Of a stretch of 64,000 nt of DNA, positions 2,524 through 62,760 are shown piece after piece; positions within the stretch are counted from its first letter, which is position 1, and each line of letters begins with the position of its first letter. The stretch is from Thermoanaerobaculia bacterium (GTDB lineage: Bacteria; Acidobacteriota; Thermoanaerobaculia; Gp7-AA8): the NCBI GenBank assembly GCA_035629395.1, contig DASPHZ010000030.1, forward strand, positions 25,440 through 89,439, read 5' to 3'. Under the pieces are notes generated by a model, which worked only from the letters and a program-made list of their open reading frames with translations, searched no databases and was not told the origin of the DNA. A program made the position numbers and the translations under genes.

Positions 2524-2615
2524 GCTTCCTCACTACTGCAAGCGAGGTTCCATGAATGGGGACTTGCGGGCTGCCCTATTGACGAAACGGAGTCAAGGCG
2601 GCATGATGCGCCGCA

Positions 2616-2632
2616 TTGAGACGCTGTCTCAA
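2616..2632. promoter_or_regulatory. Perfect 7-3-7 palindrome TTGAGAC-GCT-GTCTCAA about 25 nt upstream of bfd start; candidate iron-regulator operator
   Basis: Read directly; near-identical palindrome TTGAGACG-C-CGTCTCA sits upstream of fur at 48875-48890. Confidence 0.45.
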
Positions 2633-2655: not shown

Positions 2656-2886
2656 GTGATCATCTGTATCTGCCGCGGCAAAAACGAACGCGACATCGCA
2701 AAAGCGATCGACAACGGCGCGACCACGGTCCGCGACCTGCAGCGCTGCGGCATCGGCAACCAGTGCGGCTCCTGCCACGTCACGCTGCGCGCCATGCTGG
2801 CTGAGTCCGTTGCCGCGCGATCCGCCGCCCAGCCCTGCCCCGCGTGCCCCACGCCGGACGCCGTTCCCGCTGCCGCGATGGCGTGA
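2656..2886 (+). CDS. bfd: Bacterioferritin-associated ferredoxin (Bfd, 2Fe-2S)
   Basis: MIICICRGKNERDI...VRDLQRCGIGNQCGSCH, the classic Bfd four-Cys motif; immediately upstream of bfr. Confidence 0.85.
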   Translation: MIICICRGKNERDIAKAIDNGATTVRDLQRCGIGNQCGSCHVTLRAMLAESVAARSAAQPCPACPTPDAVPAAAMA

Positions 2887-2900
2887 TACCCTCCGCGCCC

Positions 2901-3380
2901 ATGAAGGGCGACGCACGCATCATCGAGATCCTGAACGATGTCCTGACGGCGGAACTGACCGCCATCAACCAATACTTCGTGCATGGCGAAATGTGCGAGA
3001 ACTGGGGCTACGACCGGCTCCATCACATCATCCGCAAGCACTCCATCGGCGAGATGAAACATGCCGAGGAAGTCATCGAGCGGGTGCTGTTCCTCGAGGG
3101 CGTTCCCAACCTCCAGCGCCTCGGCAAGATCACCATCGGCGAGAACGTGCAGGAGATCTTCAAGGCCGATTACGCGCTCGAGCTCGAAGCGCTGCCGCGC
3201 CTCAACCAGGGCATCGAGCTCTGCCGCGAGCTCGGCGACAACAACACCCGCCACCTCCTCGAGGAAATCCTCCACGACGAAGAAGACCACGTCGACTGGA
3301 TCGAGGCGCAGGTCGGCCTCATCGAGCAGGTGGGCATCCAGAACTACCTCGCCCAGCAGATCAACAAAAACGAGAGCTAA
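2901..3380 (+). CDS. bfr: Bacterioferritin
   Basis: MKGDARIIEILNDVLTAELTAINQYFVHGEMCENWGY...EDHVDWIEAQ; ferritin-like di-iron ligands and heme-binding Met present. True ATG at 2901 (the ORF-track start at 2844 is a spurious upstream extension). Confidence 0.9.
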   Translation: MKGDARIIEILNDVLTAELTAINQYFVHGEMCENWGYDRLHHIIRKHSIGEMKHAEEVIERVLFLEGVPNLQRLGKITIGENVQEIFKADYALELEALPRLNQGIELCRELGDNNTRHLLEEILHDEEDHVDWIEAQVGLIEQVGIQNYLAQQINKNES

Positions 3381-46056: not shown

Positions 46057-47481
46057 ATGAAGCTCCGTTTCGCCCCTTCCCCCACCGGATTCCTGCACGT
46101 CGGAGGCGCGCGCACCGCCATCTTCAATCTGCTGCACGCGCGCCGCTACGGCGGGACGATGCTGCTGCGCATCGAGGACACGGACGTCGAGCGCTCGAAG
46201 CAGCATCACGCGGAGCAGATCGTCAGCTCGCTGCAGTGGCTCGGCGTCGAATGGGACGAGGGTCCGATCTATCAGAGCGATCGGCTGGAACGGTATCGCG
46301 ACCGCGCCGAGGAGCTCGTCGCGAGCGGCAAGGCATATCGCTGCTATTGCACGGTCGAAGAATTGGAAGCGGATCGCACGGCCGCGGAAGCGCGCGGCGA
46401 TTCGTATCGCTACTCGGGCCGCTGCCGCAAACGCGCGGAGAGCGGCCAGGAGCAGCCCGACGACGTGCCGCACGTCATCCGCTGCAAGGTCATGCCGGGG
46501 CCGATCGAGTTCCACGATCTCATCCGCGGCGACGTGCAGTTCGAAGGGGAGCTGATCGACGACTTCGTCCTCATTCGCTCCGACGGCAATCCGACGTATC
46601 ACCTTTCCGTCGTCGTCGACGACGTCGACATGGAGATCACGCACGTCGCGCGCGGCGACGATCACCTCTCGAACACGCCGAAGCACATCGTGCTCTTCCG
46701 CGCGTTCGACGCACCGATCCCCGTTTTCGCGCACCTGCCGCTGATCCTCGGCAGCGATCGGAAGCGGCTGTCGAAGCGCAGCGGCGCCACGTCCGCCGAG
46801 GAGTATCGCGACATGGGCATCGTCCCCGCCGCGCTCTTCAACTTCCTCACGCTCCTCGGCTGGAATCCCGGCGGCGATCGCGAGCTGATCACGCACGACG
46901 AAGCGGTCCAGCTCTTCGATCTCGGCGACGTCAACAAGGCGCCGGCGGTGTTCGATCCGGAGAAGCTGCTCTGGATGAACGGTCAGTACCTGATGCGCAT
47001 GACCGTCGACGAGATCCATCCGCACCTCGTGCCGTTCCTCGGCGAGAACGTGCGGCCGGTCGACGAACTGCGTTCCGTCATTGAACTGAACAAAACGCGC
47101 GCGCGCACGCTGCGCGAGCTCGCGGAGCTGATGACGCCGTTCTTCGCCGACGACGACTCGATCGAGTACGACGCCGACGCGGTGAAGAAACACGTCAAGG
47201 GTGACGAGCTCGCGTCGCGCCTCACCGAACTGCATGACGTGCTCGCGAGCACCGAGCCGTTCGACGTCACCACCACCGAGGCCGCGCTTCGCGCGCTCGC
47301 CGAATCGCGCGGCGTGTCGGCGGCGAAGCTGATTCACCCGCTGCGCCTCGCGTTGACCGGCCGCGGTGCTTCGCCGCCGATCTTCGACGTGGCCGTAGTG
47401 CTCGGCAAAGAAAAAACACTACGGCGCCTGCAACGGCTGATCGCGCGTTTGCCGGAGCTCGCTCAGGCCGCTTCGGCCTGA
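46057..47481 (+). CDS. gltX: Glutamate--tRNA ligase
   Basis: MKLRFAPSPTGFLHVGGARTAIFN (HIGH region), KLSKR-type KMSKS motif (LSKRSGA). Confidence 0.95.
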   Translation: MKLRFAPSPTGFLHVGGARTAIFNLLHARRYGGTMLLRIEDTDVERSKQHHAEQIVSSLQWLGVEWDEGPIYQSDRLERYRDRAEELVASGKAYRCYCTVEELEADRTAAEARGDSYRYSGRCRKRAESGQEQPDDVPHVIRCKVMPGPIEFHDLIRGDVQFEGELIDDFVLIRSDGNPTYHLSVVVDDVDMEITHVARGDDHLSNTPKHIVLFRAFDAPIPVFAHLPLILGSDRKRLSKRSGATSAEEYRDMGIVPAALFNFLTLLGWNPGGDRELITHDEAVQLFDLGDVNKAPAVFDPEKLLWMNGQYLMRMTVDEIHPHLVPFLGENVRPVDELRSVIELNKTRARTLRELAELMTPFFADDDSIEYDADAVKKHVKGDELASRLTELHDVLASTEPFDVTTTEAALRALAESRGVSAAKLIHPLRLALTGRGASPPIFDVAVVLGKEKTLRRLQRLIARLPELAQAASA

Positions 47482-48221
47482 TTCGCGCGCATGCGGTCCA
47501 ACGCGGTCGCGCCGAGGAGCCACAGCGCGCAGATCGCGATCATGCCGCCCATGATCCAGAGGCTGTAACGGCCGTCCGCGGAGTACGGCTCGGTGGCGAG
47601 GTGGATGGCCTCGCTGTTCGGCAGCAGCTCCGCTTCGGAGAATTCGTGAATGGCGTAGAACACGATCTGGACCGTGAACAGGAGCAGGAACAATCCCGTC
47701 ACCTGGAAGAAGCGTTTGACGTTGATGCGGTGGCCGAAGTGCGCCCACAACCACGACATCGCCGCGGCGGCCGCGAGTCCGAGCGCGCAGCCGAGCCAGA
47801 AGCGGCCCTGGCGCACCTGAATCAGCATCAGCGCGGTCTCCATCCCTTCGCGCGTGATCATCAGCAGCGTGAAGCCGAAAACACCGAGCCACGCCCACAC
47901 CGGTGAGCCTTTGGAGGCTTGCATCTCGAGGCGCGTTTCCATCTCGCGCTTCATCGTCGGCGCGACGCGCCAGATGTGGATGACGAAGCTCGCCACGAGG
48001 ACCGCGGCGACGAGGGCGAGGATGCCTTCCCACAGCGGCTGATTGACGCGCTGCAGCCACCAGCCGAGGGCGGCGCTGGCGATGACGGAAACGCCGATGC
48101 CCCACCACACGGCGGGACGCAGCCACGAGCGGCCGGTCTTGCGCAGGTACGCAAAGATGATGGCCACGGTGAGAAAGGCTTCGAAGCCTTCGCGGAAAAC
48201 GATGATCAGAGCCTGGAGCAT
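47463..48221 (-). CDS. FTR1-family high-affinity iron permease (EfeU-like)
   Basis: Two REGxE motifs (REGFEA, REGMET) in TM helices. Confidence 0.85.
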   Translation of the reverse strand: MLQALIIVFREGFEAFLTVAIIFAYLRKTGRSWLRPAVWWGIGVSVIASAALGWWLQRVNQPLWEGILALVAAVLVASFVIHIWRVAPTMKREMETRLEMQASKGSPVWAWLGVFGFTLLMITREGMETALMLIQVRQGRFWLGCALGLAAAAAMSWLWAHFGHRINVKRFFQVTGLFLLLFTVQIVFYAIHEFSEAELLPNSEAIHLATEPYSADGRYSLWIMGGMIAICALWLLGATALDRMRANQAEAA

Positions 48222-48278
48222 GTGGGTTCCTCGTGCACGGCGTCATTCTGCGGCGCGCAGACACCGAAGGATCTCGAG

Positions 48279-48297
48279 CGACGCAACGGTTGCGTCG
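48279..48297. promoter_or_regulatory. Perfect 9-1-9 palindrome CGACGCAAC-G-GTTGCGTCG in fur-FTR1 spacer
   Basis: Read directly; function unknown. Confidence 0.3.
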
Positions 48298-48360
48298 AGC
48301 GAGACCGTTCGCCGTCTGCGCGGCTCAGGGTGACGGGAGCGTGCCTGGTGTGGGATGCGC

Positions 48361-48861
48361 TCATTTCCTCAGTTTCGTGGGCTGGATCATCTTCACGCGA
48401 TCCGGCGCGTCGGGTGTTTGACCCTTGCGGCGGCAGGAGTCGCATACGCCGAGGATCTGGAGGTTGTGGAACGTCGGGGTGAACTTTTTTTTCTCGCAGA
48501 TGGCGATCTGCAGGCGCTCGAGCTGTTCGTCGTGAAACTCGATGACGTTGCCGCAGGTGGTGCAGATGAGATGGTCGTGGTGCGAGTTCCCGCTGACGTG
48601 CTCGTAGTGATAGTGGTCCTCGCCGAGGTGGACGCGGCGGACCATGTTGGACTTTACGAGCAGTTCGAGCGTGCGGTAGACCGTCGCGCGCGAGATCTTG
48701 ACGCTCTTCTCCTTCATCTTTCCGAGGAGCTCGTCCGCCTCGAAGTGGTAATGCGTGGAGAAGATCTCGCGCACGAGCGCAATGCGCTCGGACGTGAGCT
48801 TGAGCCCCTGCTGCTGCAGGTAGTCCTGGAACCGTGTGATCTCGCGTTCGACGCTGGGCAT
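48361..48861 (-). CDS. fur: Ferric uptake regulator family transcriptional regulator
   Basis: RATVYRTLELL HTH, HHDHLIC...C and CxxC metal sites. Confidence 0.9.
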   Translation of the reverse strand: MPSVEREITRFQDYLQQQGLKLTSERIALVREIFSTHYHFEADELLGKMKEKSVKISRATVYRTLELLVKSNMVRRVHLGEDHYHYEHVSGNSHHDHLICTTCGNVIEFHDEQLERLQIAICEKKKFTPTFHNLQILGVCDSCRRKGQTPDAPDRVKMIQPTKLRK

Positions 48862-48874
48862 GAGAGGGTGAGAG

Positions 48875-48890
48875 TTGAGACGCCGTCTCA
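48875..48890. promoter_or_regulatory. Palindrome TTGAGACG-C-CGTCTCA 14-30 nt upstream of fur start codon; candidate autoregulatory operator
   Basis: Same core as the bfd upstream palindrome (2616-2632). Confidence 0.45.
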
Positions 48891-48929
48891 GTTGGCGAGA
48901 GTGTAGCGGGGGGAGGGGGGTGGGTCAAG

Positions 48930-49056
48930 GGAGCTGTTGAGCTGTTGAGCTGTTGAGCCGCTGAGCTGTTGAGCCGTTGAGCTGTTGAGTCGCTGAGCGG
49001 AGGGGCCGGGGGAGCTCAATGGCTCAATAGCTCAACGGCTCAATTAGCGAACAGCT
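48930..49056. repeat. Second copy of (CTGTTGAG)n / (CTCAATAG)n hairpin repeat element, same orientation as copy at 4937-5082
   Basis: ggagctgttgagctgttgagctgttgagccgctgagctgttgagccgttgagctgttgagtcgctgagcgg-aggggccgggggag-ctcaatggctcaatagctcaacggctcaattagcgaacagctccc. Overlaps the 3' end/stop of the GyrI-like gene. Confidence 0.85.
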
Positions 49057-49523
49057 CCCACCACCGGCAGGTACACATCCGTCACCATCTCCTCCTCGCG
49101 CACGTTCGGGCCGACGTTCACGTAGTGGAAGAAGATGGGAAAGTCGGCGAGGCGCTCGCCGCTTTGCGGGAGCCAGACTTCGGCGAGATAGCGCGCGGTC
49201 GTGTTGTTTTCGCGGGAGCCGAGGTGGCGGGCTTTGGCGCAGCGCAGGGCGGGGATGCGTTTGTTGATCACGCCTTGCGGATTCGGCGGGACGTCGGCGT
49301 CGACGGCGATCGCGAAATCGACGCGATGCTCCTCGGGCGCGGTTTTCGCGGGATCGGTGTAGTGGATGCCGTACGTCTTGTAGCGATCGGGCGGATAGCC
49401 GTTCTGGATGCGCCACTGGATCAGGCGGCGCGCCGTCTCGTGCTCGAGCTCCGGCGCGCCGCGATGTTCCACGGCGGCGATCTTCGTTTCGGGAAACGCG
49501 ACGATTTCGACGGCGATCGTCAT
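49044..49523 (-). CDS. GyrI-like small-molecule-binding domain protein
   Basis: About 159 aa; start ATG overlaps upstream gene stop (TGATG). Confidence 0.55.
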   Translation of the reverse strand: MTIAVEIVAFPETKIAAVEHRGAPELEHETARRLIQWRIQNGYPPDRYKTYGIHYTDPAKTAPEEHRVDFAIAVDADVPPNPQGVINKRIPALRCAKARHLGSRENNTTARYLAEVWLPQSGERLADFPIFFHYVNVGPNVREEEMVTDVYLPVVGAVR

Positions 49524-51931
49524 CACAGGTGCGTGCGCGCCGCGTCCACCACTTCGCGGATGCGCGGCTGGCGCGGATCGATGTTCAGCGAACGGTTCCA
49601 GAAATCGAGCGCGCGTGCGTAGTCCTTCTGCCGCGCGTAGTACGTGCCCATGTTGTTGAGAACGAGCGTCGACGACGGCTGCAGTGCCAGCGCGCGGTCG
49701 AGCTCCGGCATGCCTTCGGTGTAGCGCTGCGCCTGGAAGAGCGCCGAGCCGAGGTTGGCGGAGATGAGGTACGACTGCGGGAACACCTGCTTGCCTTTGT
49801 AGAGCAACTGGATCGCGCGCGAGGTCATGTCGCGCGAGCGGTAGAGCGCCGCAAAGTCGACGAACCACTGCTCCGCGTTCGGCAGCCCGCGCTGCACGGC
49901 ACTCATGAAGACGTCGTCCGCGGCGGTGTACTGCTGGCGGTCGAACAGCGTCATGGCCATGTTGAGGTACGGGATCGGGCGCGACGGATTGCGATCGATG
50001 GCGGCCTGGAACGCCTCGATGGCCTCGCGCGTCTTGTTCTGCTTCCGCAGCTCGATGCCCTGATTGTTGTAGTACGCGTACGGACCCCACTGCTCGGGTG
50101 GGATCTGCTGTGCCGCCATCTGCGGTGTGTCGTCGTCGAACACCGGTTGCGCGCGTGTCGGATCGACCATGTGTCCGATGGCCTGCAACCGCTGCGTGTA
50201 CGAGCTGCCGTCGATGCCGCCGCTGCCCATGCTCTGCGTGTTGAAGAACTCGTCGTAGCTGACGACGCGCACGGAAGTCACGGGAGTGATGTTGCTGAAC
50301 ATCCAGTCCGCGTGCTTGCCGGGCATCTCGGTCGATTGCGGCAGCCCGAGGATGGAGAGGACGGAGGGGACGATGTCGTAGAGCGAGATGGTGTGATTGC
50401 TGCGCGACGCGGCGATGTGATTGCCGTACGCGATGAACACGCCGGGATTGCGGTGATCGGCGAGCGCGGCACGGCCGACCGGCGGCACGCGCGGACGCGT
50501 CTTCCCCCAGCGATAGCCGTGCGCGGACATGACGATCACGGTCGTGTCGTCGCTGAGGACGTTCATCCATTCGCCGATGAGGCGATCGACCTCGGAGTAA
50601 TAGTTCGCAACCGCCGGCCAGTAGCGGCGGAACTCGGTCTGGTCGATGCCTTCGCGGTACGGCGGGTGATACGGCGAAAAGAGGTGATTGACGGTGTCGG
50701 TGCCTTCGTAATTCACCATCAGCAGCAGCGGCTCGTGCTGCCGGTAGAGATCGACGGCCACGCGATGATCGGTCCACGTCTTCGACAGCACGCCGCGGAA
50801 GACGTTGACCGGGTGCATCGGCCCGCCGCTCGCCACCGCGCCGTTGTATTCGGCTTCGGTGATGTTGAGGAAGCGGCGCACCTGCGGCCCGGCGATGGTG
50901 TTCAGCGGCACGTCGAGCTGCGAGACGCGCGTGGCGAGATTGCTCGGATAGATCGCGCCGCTGTGCAGACCGACCGGGGAGTCGAATGTGATCGCGCTGT
51001 CGGGACGCGCGGGCCACCCGGCCCACCAGTTCACCGTCACCGCCCGGCGACCGAATGCCTCGGCGATGTCCCAGATGGCGGGACTGCGGCGCGTGGTCGC
51101 GTCGACGGGCTTCTTGCGCGCGCGGTCGAGGAAGTCGATGACGCCATGCCGATCAGGCGAGAGGCCGGTGGCGACGGTGGTCCAGACCATGGGCGAGACG
51201 GTCGGCTGGATCGTCTGCAGCGAAGCGGTCGTGCCGCCCTGCGCGAGCGCACGAAGGTTCGGGATGCGGCCGTCGGTGGAGAGCTCGGAGATGAGCTCCC
51301 AGTCCGCGCCGTCGATGGCGAAGATGGCCACGCGTCCGGCGACGCCGCGCGCTTCGCGGCGCAGCTCGACGCGTTTGTATTCGAGGAGAGCGCGGCGATC
51401 GGGATCGATGCGCGAGATCTCGAATGCGGTGACTTGCAGGCCGCTCTGCGCGAGATGGCGCGACACGACCTGGCGGAGGACGTCGCGCCGCGCGGAGAAT
51501 TGCGAGGTCGGCGAAACGAGCTCTTCGATCGGCACCTGCTGCGTGACCGCGGACACGGCCTCGGCGACGCGCGTGCGGATCCACGCGCTCCAGCCGTCGC
51601 GCACGAGGCGCGGCGCGTCGGGGAAGCGCTCGCCCGGGATGGCGAAGCGCAGGCGGTAGCTGATCGTGACCGGCACGCGCTCCTTCGACATGATGCGCAC
51701 AAAGCCGTCACGCTGCGCATGGCCCTGGCGCTTCTCGAAACTGAGGCGGTAGAACTGATGCGGCGGCAGGAACGTGACGCGGTTCTGCACCAGCCGCACG
51801 CGCCCGTTGCTCTTGTCGACGCCGAAGATCAGCCGCCGCGAAGACGGCAGAAAGAGCGAGATGAGCAGGTACATGACCAGGCCCATCCCGGCGAGGGTCG
51901 CGAGAGCGCGGAGAAACTTCGAGCGGAACAC
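49523..51931 (-). CDS. Membrane-anchored alkaline-phosphatase-superfamily (type I phosphodiesterase/nucleotide pyrophosphatase-like) protein with C-terminal TPR repeats
   Basis: N-terminal TM; AlkP-core motifs (AIFAIDGADWE...SPMVWTTVATG...DHRNPGVF); about 250-aa C-terminal TPR region. Confidence 0.7.
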   Translation of the reverse strand: MFRSKFLRALATLAGMGLVMYLLISLFLPSSRRLIFGVDKSNGRVRLVQNRVTFLPPHQFYRLSFEKRQGHAQRDGFVRIMSKERVPVTISYRLRFAIPGERFPDAPRLVRDGWSAWIRTRVAEAVSAVTQQVPIEELVSPTSQFSARRDVLRQVVSRHLAQSGLQVTAFEISRIDPDRRALLEYKRVELRREARGVAGRVAIFAIDGADWELISELSTDGRIPNLRALAQGGTTASLQTIQPTVSPMVWTTVATGLSPDRHGVIDFLDRARKKPVDATTRRSPAIWDIAEAFGRRAVTVNWWAGWPARPDSAITFDSPVGLHSGAIYPSNLATRVSQLDVPLNTIAGPQVRRFLNITEAEYNGAVASGGPMHPVNVFRGVLSKTWTDHRVAVDLYRQHEPLLLMVNYEGTDTVNHLFSPYHPPYREGIDQTEFRRYWPAVANYYSEVDRLIGEWMNVLSDDTTVIVMSAHGYRWGKTRPRVPPVGRAALADHRNPGVFIAYGNHIAASRSNHTISLYDIVPSVLSILGLPQSTEMPGKHADWMFSNITPVTSVRVVSYDEFFNTQSMGSGGIDGSSYTQRLQAIGHMVDPTRAQPVFDDDTPQMAAQQIPPEQWGPYAYYNNQGIELRKQNKTREAIEAFQAAIDRNPSRPIPYLNMAMTLFDRQQYTAADDVFMSAVQRGLPNAEQWFVDFAALYRSRDMTSRAIQLLYKGKQVFPQSYLISANLGSALFQAQRYTEGMPELDRALALQPSSTLVLNNMGTYYARQKDYARALDFWNRSLNIDPRQPRIREVVDAARTHL

Positions 51932-51954: not shown

Positions 51955-52066
51955 TGCCAGATGGTTGCTGGTGGTTGGTTGCTGGTTGGTAGTTACTGGT
52001 TGCTCGGGATTTGCCCTGAGCCGAAAGCTCACGAGCAACCAGGAACCAGCAACGAGTAACCAGCAA
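51955..52066. repeat. Hairpin repeat element, (GGTTGCT)n left arm / (AGCAACC)n right arm
   Basis: ggttgccagatggttgctggtggttggttgctggttggtagttactggttgctcg-ggatttgccctgagccgaaagctcacg-agcaaccaggaaccagcaacgagtaaccagcaac. Confidence 0.8.
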
Positions 52067-52783
52067 CTACTTCCGCCGCTTCACCAACTGCTTCACCTCA
52101 TCGTTCCCGATCGCGCTCTGCGCGGAAATGATGACCGCCGCGGTGCCGTCGCGGAAGGCGGGGATGGTGCAGCGCACGGTCGCCGTTCCGTCCGCCGCGG
52201 TCTTGCCGCGGAAGATGACGCGCGGCGGTTCCACGGTCGAGATCACTTTCACCTCGATCGCGGCCGCGGGGATCGGTGCCTGGGAGAGGCTCTTGCGGGC
52301 GGCGACGCGCATTTCGATCGGGGCGCCGGCGAAGAAGTCGACCACGTTGAGGAGCGCGAGCTCGAGATGCTCGCTCTCGGCTTCCGAGGCGAGGTAGTCG
52401 ATGATGACCTGATCGAGGGTCTTCTCCTCGTCGATCGCCACCGGTGCCGCCGCGGCTTCCTCGAACACCACGCCCGAGTCCTGCGTGAGCGTCGGCATCG
52501 ACGGGCGCGGCGAGGCTTTCGTCGTATCGGCGGGCTGATCGAAGCGGCCGCGTTTGATGGCCGCGATCATGGTCCGGTGCTGCTGCTCCATGAGGCCGCC
52601 GATCCATTTGTCGTCGACGCCCGTCTTGAGCTGCTCCGCGTACGAAGTCTTCTTCGACGCGAGGATCTCGCCACCCACGTACACGAGCGACTCGATGTAG
52701 GGATTCCCTACACCTTTGTCCTCGGTCTGCACGTGGTAGACCTTCTCGTTGTGCTTGATGTCTGTATTGAAGCCGGTGATCAC
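52067..52783 (-). CDS. Hypothetical protein
   Basis: Good GC3 bias; MITGFNTDIKHNEKVYHVQTEDKGVGNPYIESLVYVGGEIL N-terminus, no motif recognised. Confidence 0.55.
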   Translation of the reverse strand: MITGFNTDIKHNEKVYHVQTEDKGVGNPYIESLVYVGGEILASKKTSYAEQLKTGVDDKWIGGLMEQQHRTMIAAIKRGRFDQPADTTKASPRPSMPTLTQDSGVVFEEAAAAPVAIDEEKTLDQVIIDYLASEAESEHLELALLNVVDFFAGAPIEMRVAARKSLSQAPIPAAAIEVKVISTVEPPRVIFRGKTAADGTATVRCTIPAFRDGTAAVIISAQSAIGNDEVKQLVKRRK

Positions 52784-62297: not shown

Positions 62298-62760
62298 CCA
62301 GCTGGTGGTGAGCTGTTGAGCGATCAAGCTGTTGAGCTGTTGCGGCCATCCGCCGCTCGAGGGAGCGTTAGAGCTGTAGAGCGATAAAGCTATAGAGGGG
62401 CCACTACCGCTTTACAGCTTTACGACTCTATCACTCTACAGCTTCCTCCCCCGGCCTCAACTCCTGCGGCCATCCGCCGCTCAGCTCAACAGCTGTGGGG
62501 GAGCGGTAGAGCTGTAGAGCGATAAGCTATAGAGGGGCTGCTACCCCCTTTACAGCTTTACAGCTCTATCACTCTACAGCTCCCTCCCCGCCCTCACTCC
62601 TGCGACCATCCGCCGCTCAGCTCAATAGCTTAACGGCTCAACAGCTCAATAGCTCTGTGGGGGGAGCTATCGCGGGGCTACCCCTTTACAGCTTTACAGC
62701 TCTACCACTTTCCAGCTCCCATCACTCTACAGCTCCGCCCCTCACTCCCCCGTCTGCCGC
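62298..62760. repeat. Composite repeat array: about 125-135-bp unit in 3 tandem copies (third degenerate), flanked/interspersed with CTGTTGAG/CTCAATAG-family arms
   Basis: ccatccgccgctc recurs at 62346, 62470, 62606; each unit contains tagagctgtagagcgata(a)agctatagagggg...ctttacagctttac(g/a)(a/g)ctctatcactctacagct. Also gagctgttgagcgatcaagctgttgagctgttg at 62304 and cagctcaatagcttaacggctcaacagctcaatagctc at 62618. Confidence 0.85.

Follow-up and report, generated by a model that had tools for sequence, protein, structure and literature searches.

How are iron genes controlled where the DNA around them holds no recognizable AT-rich Fur box? The question is raised by a 64-kb stretch of 63-68% G+C, here called the window and analysed at its full length, of a Thermoanaerobaculia (Acidobacteriota) metagenome-assembled genome (MAG); the Fur and Bfr proteins encoded in it are 100% identical to those of a 'Thermoanaerobaculia bacterium' MAG. 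An original prediction, made from the sequence of the window, had placed GC-rich palindromes 5' of both bfd-bfr and fur, had seen no canonical AT-rich Fur box in these promoters and had proposed that the palindromes may be the operator of the organism's own Fur-family regulator or of another iron-responsive regulator. Both palindromes were found at the places given. The window holds exactly two copies of their common motif, TGAGACNNNGTCTCA (TGAGAC-N3-GTCTCA), where 0.01 would be expected, and 0 of 100 shuffled sequences reached two; the classical Fur core TGATAATNATTATCA has no match in the whole window at up to three mismatches, in agreement with what had been said of the AT-rich box. On the comparative evidence set out below, the inverted repeat is likely to be an operator for Fur-mediated repression by the Fur-family protein encoded at 48361-48861.

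The first copy, box 1 (TTGAGACGCTGTCTCAA, 2616-2632, no strand assigned), is the candidate operator of bfd-bfr. It begins 8 nucleotides (nt) past the -10 hexamer of a sigma-70-type promoter, TTGACG-17 nt-CATGAT (2579-2607, plus strand), and its end at 2632 is separated by 23 nt from the GTG start codon of bfd at 2656. This promoter, like all those described here, is a prediction from scans or from recognition of its hexamers; scanning 2500-2700 gave two promoter-like sites against a mean of 0.0 in shuffled sequences, the bfd promoter being the one on the plus strand. The bfd gene (2656-2886, plus strand) encodes a bacterioferritin-associated [2Fe-2S] ferredoxin of 76 amino acids (Pfam PF04324, Fer2_BFD, 38.9 bits), and 14 nt past it lies bfr (2901-3380, plus strand), encoding a bacterioferritin of 159 amino acids (NCBIfam TIGR00754, 210 bits, cut-off 125.6). 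The second copy, box 2 (48875-48891, no strand assigned), reads TTGAGACGCCGTCTCAG on the plus strand and CTGAGACGGCGTCTCAA in gene orientation and is the candidate operator of fur-ftr1; the original prediction had given it as TTGAGACGCCGTCTCA at 48875-48890. It stands 13 nt before the ATG of fur (48861, minus strand), and its core begins 9 nt past the -10 hexamer of a predicted sigma-70-type promoter, TTGACC-17 nt-TACACT (48900-48928, minus strand). The gene behind it (48361-48861, minus strand) encodes the presumed binder of the box, a Fur-family protein of 166 amino acids matching PF01475 over residues 18-136 with 111 bits against a gathering threshold of 23.1, and the second gene of the operon (47463-48221, minus strand) encodes an FTR1/EfeU-like iron permease (PF03239, 97.8 bits).

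Phylogenetic footprinting, which the original prediction had suggested as a check, supported both sites. We compared 80 fur loci obtained from a scan of GTDB species genomes, all from Thermoanaerobaculia or Acidobacteriota MAGs and encoding Furs 75-89% identical to the window protein, and scored a box wherever TGAGACNNNGTCTCA was matched with at most one mismatch no more than 130 nt 5' of fur. The box was present in 74 of the 80 Thermoanaerobaculia species. In the 1.23 Mb made up by these loci and the window, 64 exact copies were counted, compared to 0.04 expected, and besides the copies at fur and the two of the window the flanks hold just one more, directly before apbE (L058:9080). Weaker boxes, for example ahead of ftr1, did not emerge when the window and the 80 loci were scanned with a position-weight matrix: the scores above 16 bits belonged to the same set of sites, lower scores being at the level of shuffled sequence. 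The consensus of the 74 sites, TTGAGACT-n-AGTCTCAA, is a 7-1-7 repeat, TGAGACT-n-AGTCTCA, which extends to gcaaYTGAGACT-s-AGTCTCARttgc. Twelve core positions are conserved at 93-99%, among them G4 (99%) and C6 (97%), the position next to the centre on either side is T/A in 90% of the sites, and the centre itself and the flanks vary.

The position of the box is constrained as well as its sequence. A TTGAC(C/A/G)-N17-TA(G/C/A)ACT promoter could be recognized in 62 of the 74 orthologous fur promoters, and in 43 of these 62 the core starts exactly 12 nt past the -10 hexamer, while the distance from box to start codon ranges from 0 to 74 nt. The same arrangement was found at bfd, whose relatives were traced from bacterioferritin homologues 84-89% identical to that of the window. 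All four independent relatives fetched (L081/L082, L083/L084, L085/L086 and L087) keep the box 5' of bfd, retain ykuD divergent from bfd-bfr and carry TTGACG-N17-CATGAT or -CATCAT with the box 7-9 nt further on; their boxes differ in the centre triplet (GCT, CGC, TGA, TCA) and in the surrounding sequence.

The ftr1 gene follows fur in 75 of the 80 related loci, usually after a gap of 3-20 nt, and because it trails fur so closely we regard fur-ftr1 as one transcription unit under the box. Six fur loci lack the box: L022, L023, L046, L080, L040, which has two mismatches, and L061, whose upstream region is truncated. The first four of these are also the four without ftr1 after fur, thus tying the box to control of the permease; they have no recognizable promoter either, fur lying close behind a GyrI-like gene. 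One assembly, DATAJY01, carries a perfect box at bfd (L085) and none at fur (L023), which indicates that the bfd site outlives the loss of autoregulation and suggests that in this lineage autoregulation and permease control were lost together and the regulon persisted.

Some variation was seen among the fur promoters themselves. Five species (L060, L062, L065, L067 and L077) share a clade-specific asymmetric box, TTGCGACTGAGTCTCAG, in which A5 is changed to C in one half only. In six others (L010, L012, L013, L017, L021 and L047), an extra half-site, TTGAGAC or TCGAGAC, is located between the -35 and -10 hexamers, and the common -10 sequence TAGACT itself resembles the half-site TGAGACT. The extra half-sites may constitute a second, overlapping operator or may reflect recognition of a direct repeat.

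Beyond these relatives, the box recurs in contigs from other phyla. Querying metagenomes with the exact consensus TTGAGACTNAGTCTCAA gave at least 120 loci (L088-L207), and all metagenome counts given here refer to the matches listed. Since greedy calling of open reading frames produced spurious wrong-strand frames in contigs of high G+C content, the genes near these boxes were classed by homology. A gene for Fur, FeoA/FeoB, FTR1, Bfd/Bfr or a ferritin-like protein reads away from the box in 46 of the 120 loci, and in 45 of these 46 that gene comes first, at a distance of no more than 350 nt. The first gene belongs to the Fur family and lies within 150 nt in 28 loci, only 8 of which are of the Thermoanaerobaculia fur-ftr1 type while 20 are not; feoA/feoB was found in 20 loci, and the box also stands 5' of bfd-bfr in L089, L155 and L202. 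The distant box-associated Furs represent about 10 lineages, share 25-44% identity with the window Fur and for the most part under 45% with one another, and are encoded on contigs of 30-71% G+C (30-73% for all 120 contigs). Their loci nevertheless share one layout, a TTGACA-N16-17-TATAAT-like promoter followed by the box and then by fur. One group is annotated as Candidatus Omnitrophica and has the box between fur and a divergent ferritin-like gene (L112, L138 and L159), and a homologue search with a profile of the box-associated Fur returned almost only Omnitrophota relatives. The idea that the box is specific to one lineage is thus not upheld. A drift in GC content as the source of G4 and C6 was ruled out as well, GAGAC being retained in contigs of 30-36% G+C. 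Overall, TGAGACT-n-AGTCTCA appears to define a Fur-box specificity class that is shared by no fewer than two named phyla (Acidobacteriota and Omnitrophota) and is probably more widespread.

The two sets of loci also support each other. In about half of the related species (L001-L080), the fur-ftr1 operon is extended by apbE and by a gene for a coiled-coil, outer-membrane-like protein, and the same four genes are found at 3001-6501 of L210, which encodes a Fur 95% identical to that of the window. Independently, ApbE genes lie directly behind the box in the unrelated contigs L093, L094 and L098, and the coiled-coil protein gene does so in L095 and L148, which cross-validates the regulon. The coiled-coil protein matches no Pfam family, has roughly 450-500 amino acids with the coiled coil at its N-terminus, and is probably an outer-membrane porin. 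In the window organism fur-ftr1 stands alone and is followed by a convergent gltX, and tblastn of the window with FeoA/B, ApbE, the outer-membrane protein, ZnuA, ferritin-like proteins and the other box-neighbour families returned nothing beyond bfd, bfr, fur and ftr1.

Several metagenome loci showed other arrangements of the box. A gene for a periplasmic binding protein of the PF12974 ('phosphonate-binding') type begins 15-47 nt past an exact box in L114, L179, L186, L197 and L198 (41-48% G+C), and it may be part of an uncharacterized iron-related ATP-binding cassette (ABC) transporter of another lineage. In L088, L118, L143, L158 and L205, all high-GC contigs, the box-associated Furs have an HHHH(L)xC motif and are linked to genes for ZnuA-family (cluster-9) metal-binding proteins; in these lineages, ABC importers of Mn, Zn or Fe may be under the control of the box. 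Lastly, the box is located just past the fur stop codon and before feoB in L125 (box at 374) and L144 (9761), and between the 3' end of fur and a divergent gene for a DUF6662 outer-membrane-type protein in L090 (7669). The operator in these three loci is therefore on the 3' side of fur and not autoregulatory.

The window Fur has the features of a metal-sensing member of its family. Its closest solved homologue is the Fur of Campylobacter jejuni (PDB 4ets and 6d57; residues 8-145 aligned, 94 bits), and its alignments show conservation of the predicted metal ligands H94 H95 D96 H97, E108 and H132 and of the cysteine pairs C100/C103 and C140/C143. None of ten NCBIfam equivalog models reached its cut-off, the best being Fur-Bacillus (92.8 bits against 220), followed by Fur-Helicobacter (86.2 bits) and PerR-Clostridium (84.8 bits), all far below their cut-offs; ten distant box-associated Furs likewise fell under every equivalog cut-off (Fur, PerR, Zur and Irr). 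In its recognition helix, the segment ATVY62R63TL aligns with the ATVYRTL of the C. jejuni and B. subtilis-type Furs. Structures of the Magnetospirillum gryphiswaldense Fur on DNA show Arg57 reading G, Tyr56 reading T, the Ser51 backbone touching the DNA and Lys15 reading the AT tract in its narrow minor groove (PMC4506495). Y62 and R63 of the window Fur correspond to Tyr56 and Arg57, which fits the retained TG...CA ends of the box.

A different residue could account for the new base pairs. R58, at the start of the recognition helix, aligns with residue 52 of the M. gryphiswaldense protein, and this position is occupied by Arg in every box-associated Fur except one, which has Lys. Elsewhere it is Leu (the Furs of E. 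coli, V. cholerae and P. aeruginosa and the B. subtilis-type Fur) or Ile (C. jejuni Fur and Nur). We consider it a reasonable hypothesis that R58 is the reader of the new G:C pairs. A broader proposal, which we put forward only tentatively, is that the box represents a so far unrecognized multi-phylum class of Fur operators used by a large clade of Furs with Arg or Lys at this position (Acidobacteriota, Omnitrophota and others), in which that residue would read the G4/C6 pairs by direct base contact in place of the shape readout of an AT tract, considered the hallmark of how Fur recognizes DNA.

Comparison with known operators places the box close to, and distinct from, the classical Fur box (GATAATGATAATCATTATC, 19 bp, with the core TGATAAT-n-ATTATCA). 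Both are 7-1-7 repeats and agree at 10 of 14 positions (T1, G2, A3, A5 and T7 of each half), whereas the classical box has T4 and A6 in each half where the present one has G4 and C6. The inverted repeat, described in the original prediction as 7 bp with a spacing of 1-3 nt, is best read as 7-1-7 and as a form of the classical Fur box changed at two positions, not as an unrelated motif. The two also resemble each other in context, as the classical box overlaps the promoters of fur and of genes for iron uptake and the present box does so at predicted promoters, preceding fur-ftr1, bfd-bfr, feoAB and ferritin-like genes. The present box, too, is presumably contacted by a Fur dimer by way of the conserved Tyr/Arg pair. 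B. subtilis half-sites reportedly read TGATAAT for Fur, TTATAAT for PerR and TCGTAAT for Zur, so that one or two bases per half set the class on a common 7-1-7 scaffold. The same principle would apply here, except that the changes fall at positions 4 and 6 and not at 2 and 3 and that the targets are iron uptake and storage genes, not peroxide or zinc genes. Because the two-base difference is conserved at 97-99% and the B. subtilis boxes differ from each other equally little, we regard the present box as a separate operator class and not as a degenerate Fur box. The PerR operator TTATAAT-n-ATTATAA is not matched by the box. C. jejuni Fur, which shares the HHDH motif, both CxxC motifs and the TVYRTL helix with the window Fur, has Ile at the place of R58 and binds AT-rich boxes. 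In the classical box, whose core has been quoted as AATGATAATnATTATCATT (PMC1698941), the AT-rich tract provides a narrow minor groove that is read by shape (PMC4506495), and this tract is interrupted in the present box.

The iron control element (ICE) bound by Irr in Bradyrhizobium and other alpha-proteobacteria, TTTAGAA-N3-TTCTAAA (PMC1698941), is equally close: it has 10 of 14 positions in common with the box read as 7-3-7, TTGAGAC-N3-GTCTCAA (T1, T2, A4, G5 and A6 of each half). Like the present box with its presumed binder, it is bound by a Fur-family protein 5' of iron genes, including genes of the bfr type. The window Fur differs from Irr in scoring only 40.7 bits with the Irr model (cut-off 170) and 44.7 bits with IrrA (cut-off 150) and in keeping its Cys4 site and all metal-sensing ligands, and the ICE is known from alpha-proteobacteria while the present box is found in Acidobacteriota and Omnitrophota. 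The box motif was not found in a Fur context in the literature searched, which covered few subscription journals, the hits being primers or unrelated papers only. We know of no description of this Fur-box variant.

From the sequence, position, conservation and gene association of the box we infer the following model, in which the binder, its metal dependence and the sign of regulation are all predicted. If transcription starts about 7 nt past the -10 hexamer, the box would cover roughly +2 to +20, a classical repressor position, and a metal-loaded Fur dimer bound there would lie across the start and keep RNA polymerase out. To judge from other Furs, loading with Fe2+ would be needed for binding. 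Scarcity of iron would then release the repressor, allowing expression of fur-ftr1, and hence of the permease with negative autoregulation of fur, as well as of bfd(-bfr), with Bfd releasing iron from bacterioferritin. Bfd mobilizes iron from Bfr in E. coli and Pseudomonas, which agrees with bfd being under Fur repression. In other genomes, feoAB, ferritin-like genes, apbE and the outer-membrane protein gene would be derepressed in the same way.

Several observations weigh against this picture or its wider forms. Storage genes (bfr and ferritin-like) placed under the same repressor site as uptake genes do not follow textbook logic, which is explicable for bfd and less so for ferritins; the co-repression of these storage genes may involve internal promoters, or the sign of regulation may differ. 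Of the 120 listed metagenome matches, about 57 have no recognized neighbour and may have arisen by chance. The box has promoter-like hexamers before it in only 6 of these 57, compared to 28 of the 63 loci with a recognized neighbour, and many of the neighbourless matches are therefore probably chance occurrences. Genes for ZnuA-family binding proteins adjoin some of the box-associated Furs, so some members of the class may sense another metal. As for R58, Arg or Lys occupies this position in 106 of 142 proteins among the nearest 150 representatives of 50%-identity clusters. The residue therefore marks a large clade, and its perfect association with the box is only suggestive. Moreover, the comparison of the recognition helix with PDB, a short-fragment search dominated by designer repeat proteins and yielding two useful alignments, showed that ATVYRTLELL is identical in the window Fur and in the B. 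subtilis-type Fur (PDB 9ire). As the latter binds TGATAAT, the specificity cannot come from these helix residues.

We also considered whether the box might be a true operator of the adjacent Fur-family protein that responds to a signal other than Fe2+, such as Mn2+ (Mur-like), Zn2+ (Zur-like), peroxide (PerR-like) or haem (Irr-like). We judge this unlikely, although the window Fur has no NCBIfam equivalog assignment, the box is as near to the ICE as to the Fur box, fur together with ferritin-type genes is typical of the B. subtilis PerR regulon, and ZnuA-family genes follow the box-associated Furs in the five loci described above. The recurrent neighbours are dedicated iron genes, namely FTR1 (75 of 80), FeoA/FeoB (20 of the 120 listed) and Bfd-Bfr, and no catalase, peroxiredoxin or haem biosynthesis family, and no catalase or peroxiredoxin cluster, was among the recurrent neighbours in the listed loci, these families not having been searched for explicitly. 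In addition, the protein combines a Cys4 zinc site with the full HHDH/E/H ligands, Irr models give only 40-45 bits, and its helix has Arg63 where PerR has Asn. Binding by an iron regulator from outside the Fur family, for example of the DtxR/IdeR, Rrf2/RirA or IscR type, that controls both fur and the iron genes is improbable in our view. The identity of the binder is indeed read from adjacency alone, and DATAJY01, with its box at bfd and not at fur, shows that autoregulation is not obligatory. Fur nevertheless comes first after the box in 28 of the 120 listed matches, in about 10 lineages less than 45% identical, and no other transcription factor family recurs beside the box in the listed loci. 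The 7-1-7 arrangement, the TGA...TCA ends and the 10/14 identity to TGATAAT-n-ATTATCA are of Fur-family format, whereas IdeR and RirA boxes are different.

The remaining alternatives do not involve a protein-binding site in DNA. It would be conceivable that the palindrome acts within the 5' untranslated region as an RNA hairpin that affects stability or translation, in that the site lies downstream of the predicted start, and is hence transcribed, and could form a stem of 6-7 bp. Against it, the stem positions are 93-99% invariant across 74 species with no compensatory changes, the sequence is identical in contigs of 30-71% GC, the spacing is fixed to the -10 hexamer and variable (0-74 nt) to the start codon, and the Omnitrophota-type loci L112, L138 and L159 have a single copy between fur and the ferritin-like gene that diverges from it, all of which makes this explanation very improbable. 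Finally, the window alone, with only two copies, might suggest two unrelated GC-rich palindromes that stand near iron genes by chance. With 0.01 copies expected, and with the box kept by 74 of the 80 species at fur and by every bfd promoter examined, coincidence is refuted. The core idea of the original prediction, an operator of the organism's Fur-family regulator shared by bfd-bfr and fur, is strongly supported by the conservation at fur and bfd, by the fixed spacing to the -10 hexamer and by the iron genes behind the box in metagenomes.

A further palindrome, CGACGCAAC-G-GTTGCGTCG, had been reported in what was taken for the promoter of the iron permease gene. It is present, at 48279-48297, and it forms the tip of a single long hairpin (-69.1 kcal/mol, z = -5.5) into which the whole 139-nt spacer between fur and ftr1 folds (48222-48360, minus strand). 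As ftr1 belongs to the fur operon and the spacer is an inserted hairpin, missing in relatives and with a core repeated elsewhere, a promoter element or second regulator site at this place was ruled out. The 28-nt core of the spacer (about 48308-48336) recurs three times in L081, in L049, L035, L021 and L018, and, at intervals of about 104 nt, four times in L046. On this evidence, we interpret the spacer as an inserted, strain-specific element like the repetitive extragenic palindromic (REP) sequences and not as an ancestral FTR1 promoter; it looks like a REP- or miniature inverted-repeat transposable element (MITE)-like insertion within the operon.

A second type of hairpin was noted between the stop codon of the GyrI-like gene and the fur promoter. 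At 48931-49057, eight copies of GAGCTGTT face four copies of AGCTCAAC (-68.7 kcal/mol, z = -7.4), and intergenic hairpins of the same architecture, built from different 8-mers, also occur at 51971-52067 and 62501-62574 of the window and 5' of fur in L019, L028, L052, L054 and L210 (2810-2915). These arrays have no U-tract behind them and could act as terminators or insulators. In the same region, a mechanically called open reading frame at 49044-51026 (660 amino acids) was rejected as an artefact, the public gene calls giving a GyrI-like protein of 159 amino acids (49044-49523) and a TPR/sulfatase-domain protein of 802 amino acids (49523-51931).

Fur regulons of little-studied phyla are usually predicted with the AT-rich box of proteobacteria or Bacillus. 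That box would find nothing here, and the alternative one permits the iron regulon of abundant soil and sediment bacteria to be predicted from MAGs alone. The box also provides a natural experiment on Fur specificity, with the same ATVYRTLELL helix, two base pairs per half that are strictly different and one candidate determinant, R58, whose role is predicted. In the current structural view, Fur reads a degenerate AT-rich site largely through the shape of the minor groove (PMC4506495), and a strictly conserved box containing G and C would qualify this view. The biology proposed for these bacteria, a Fur that would repress iron genes and itself, is ordinary; what would be new are the sequence of the operator, its strictness, its breadth and the candidate residue.

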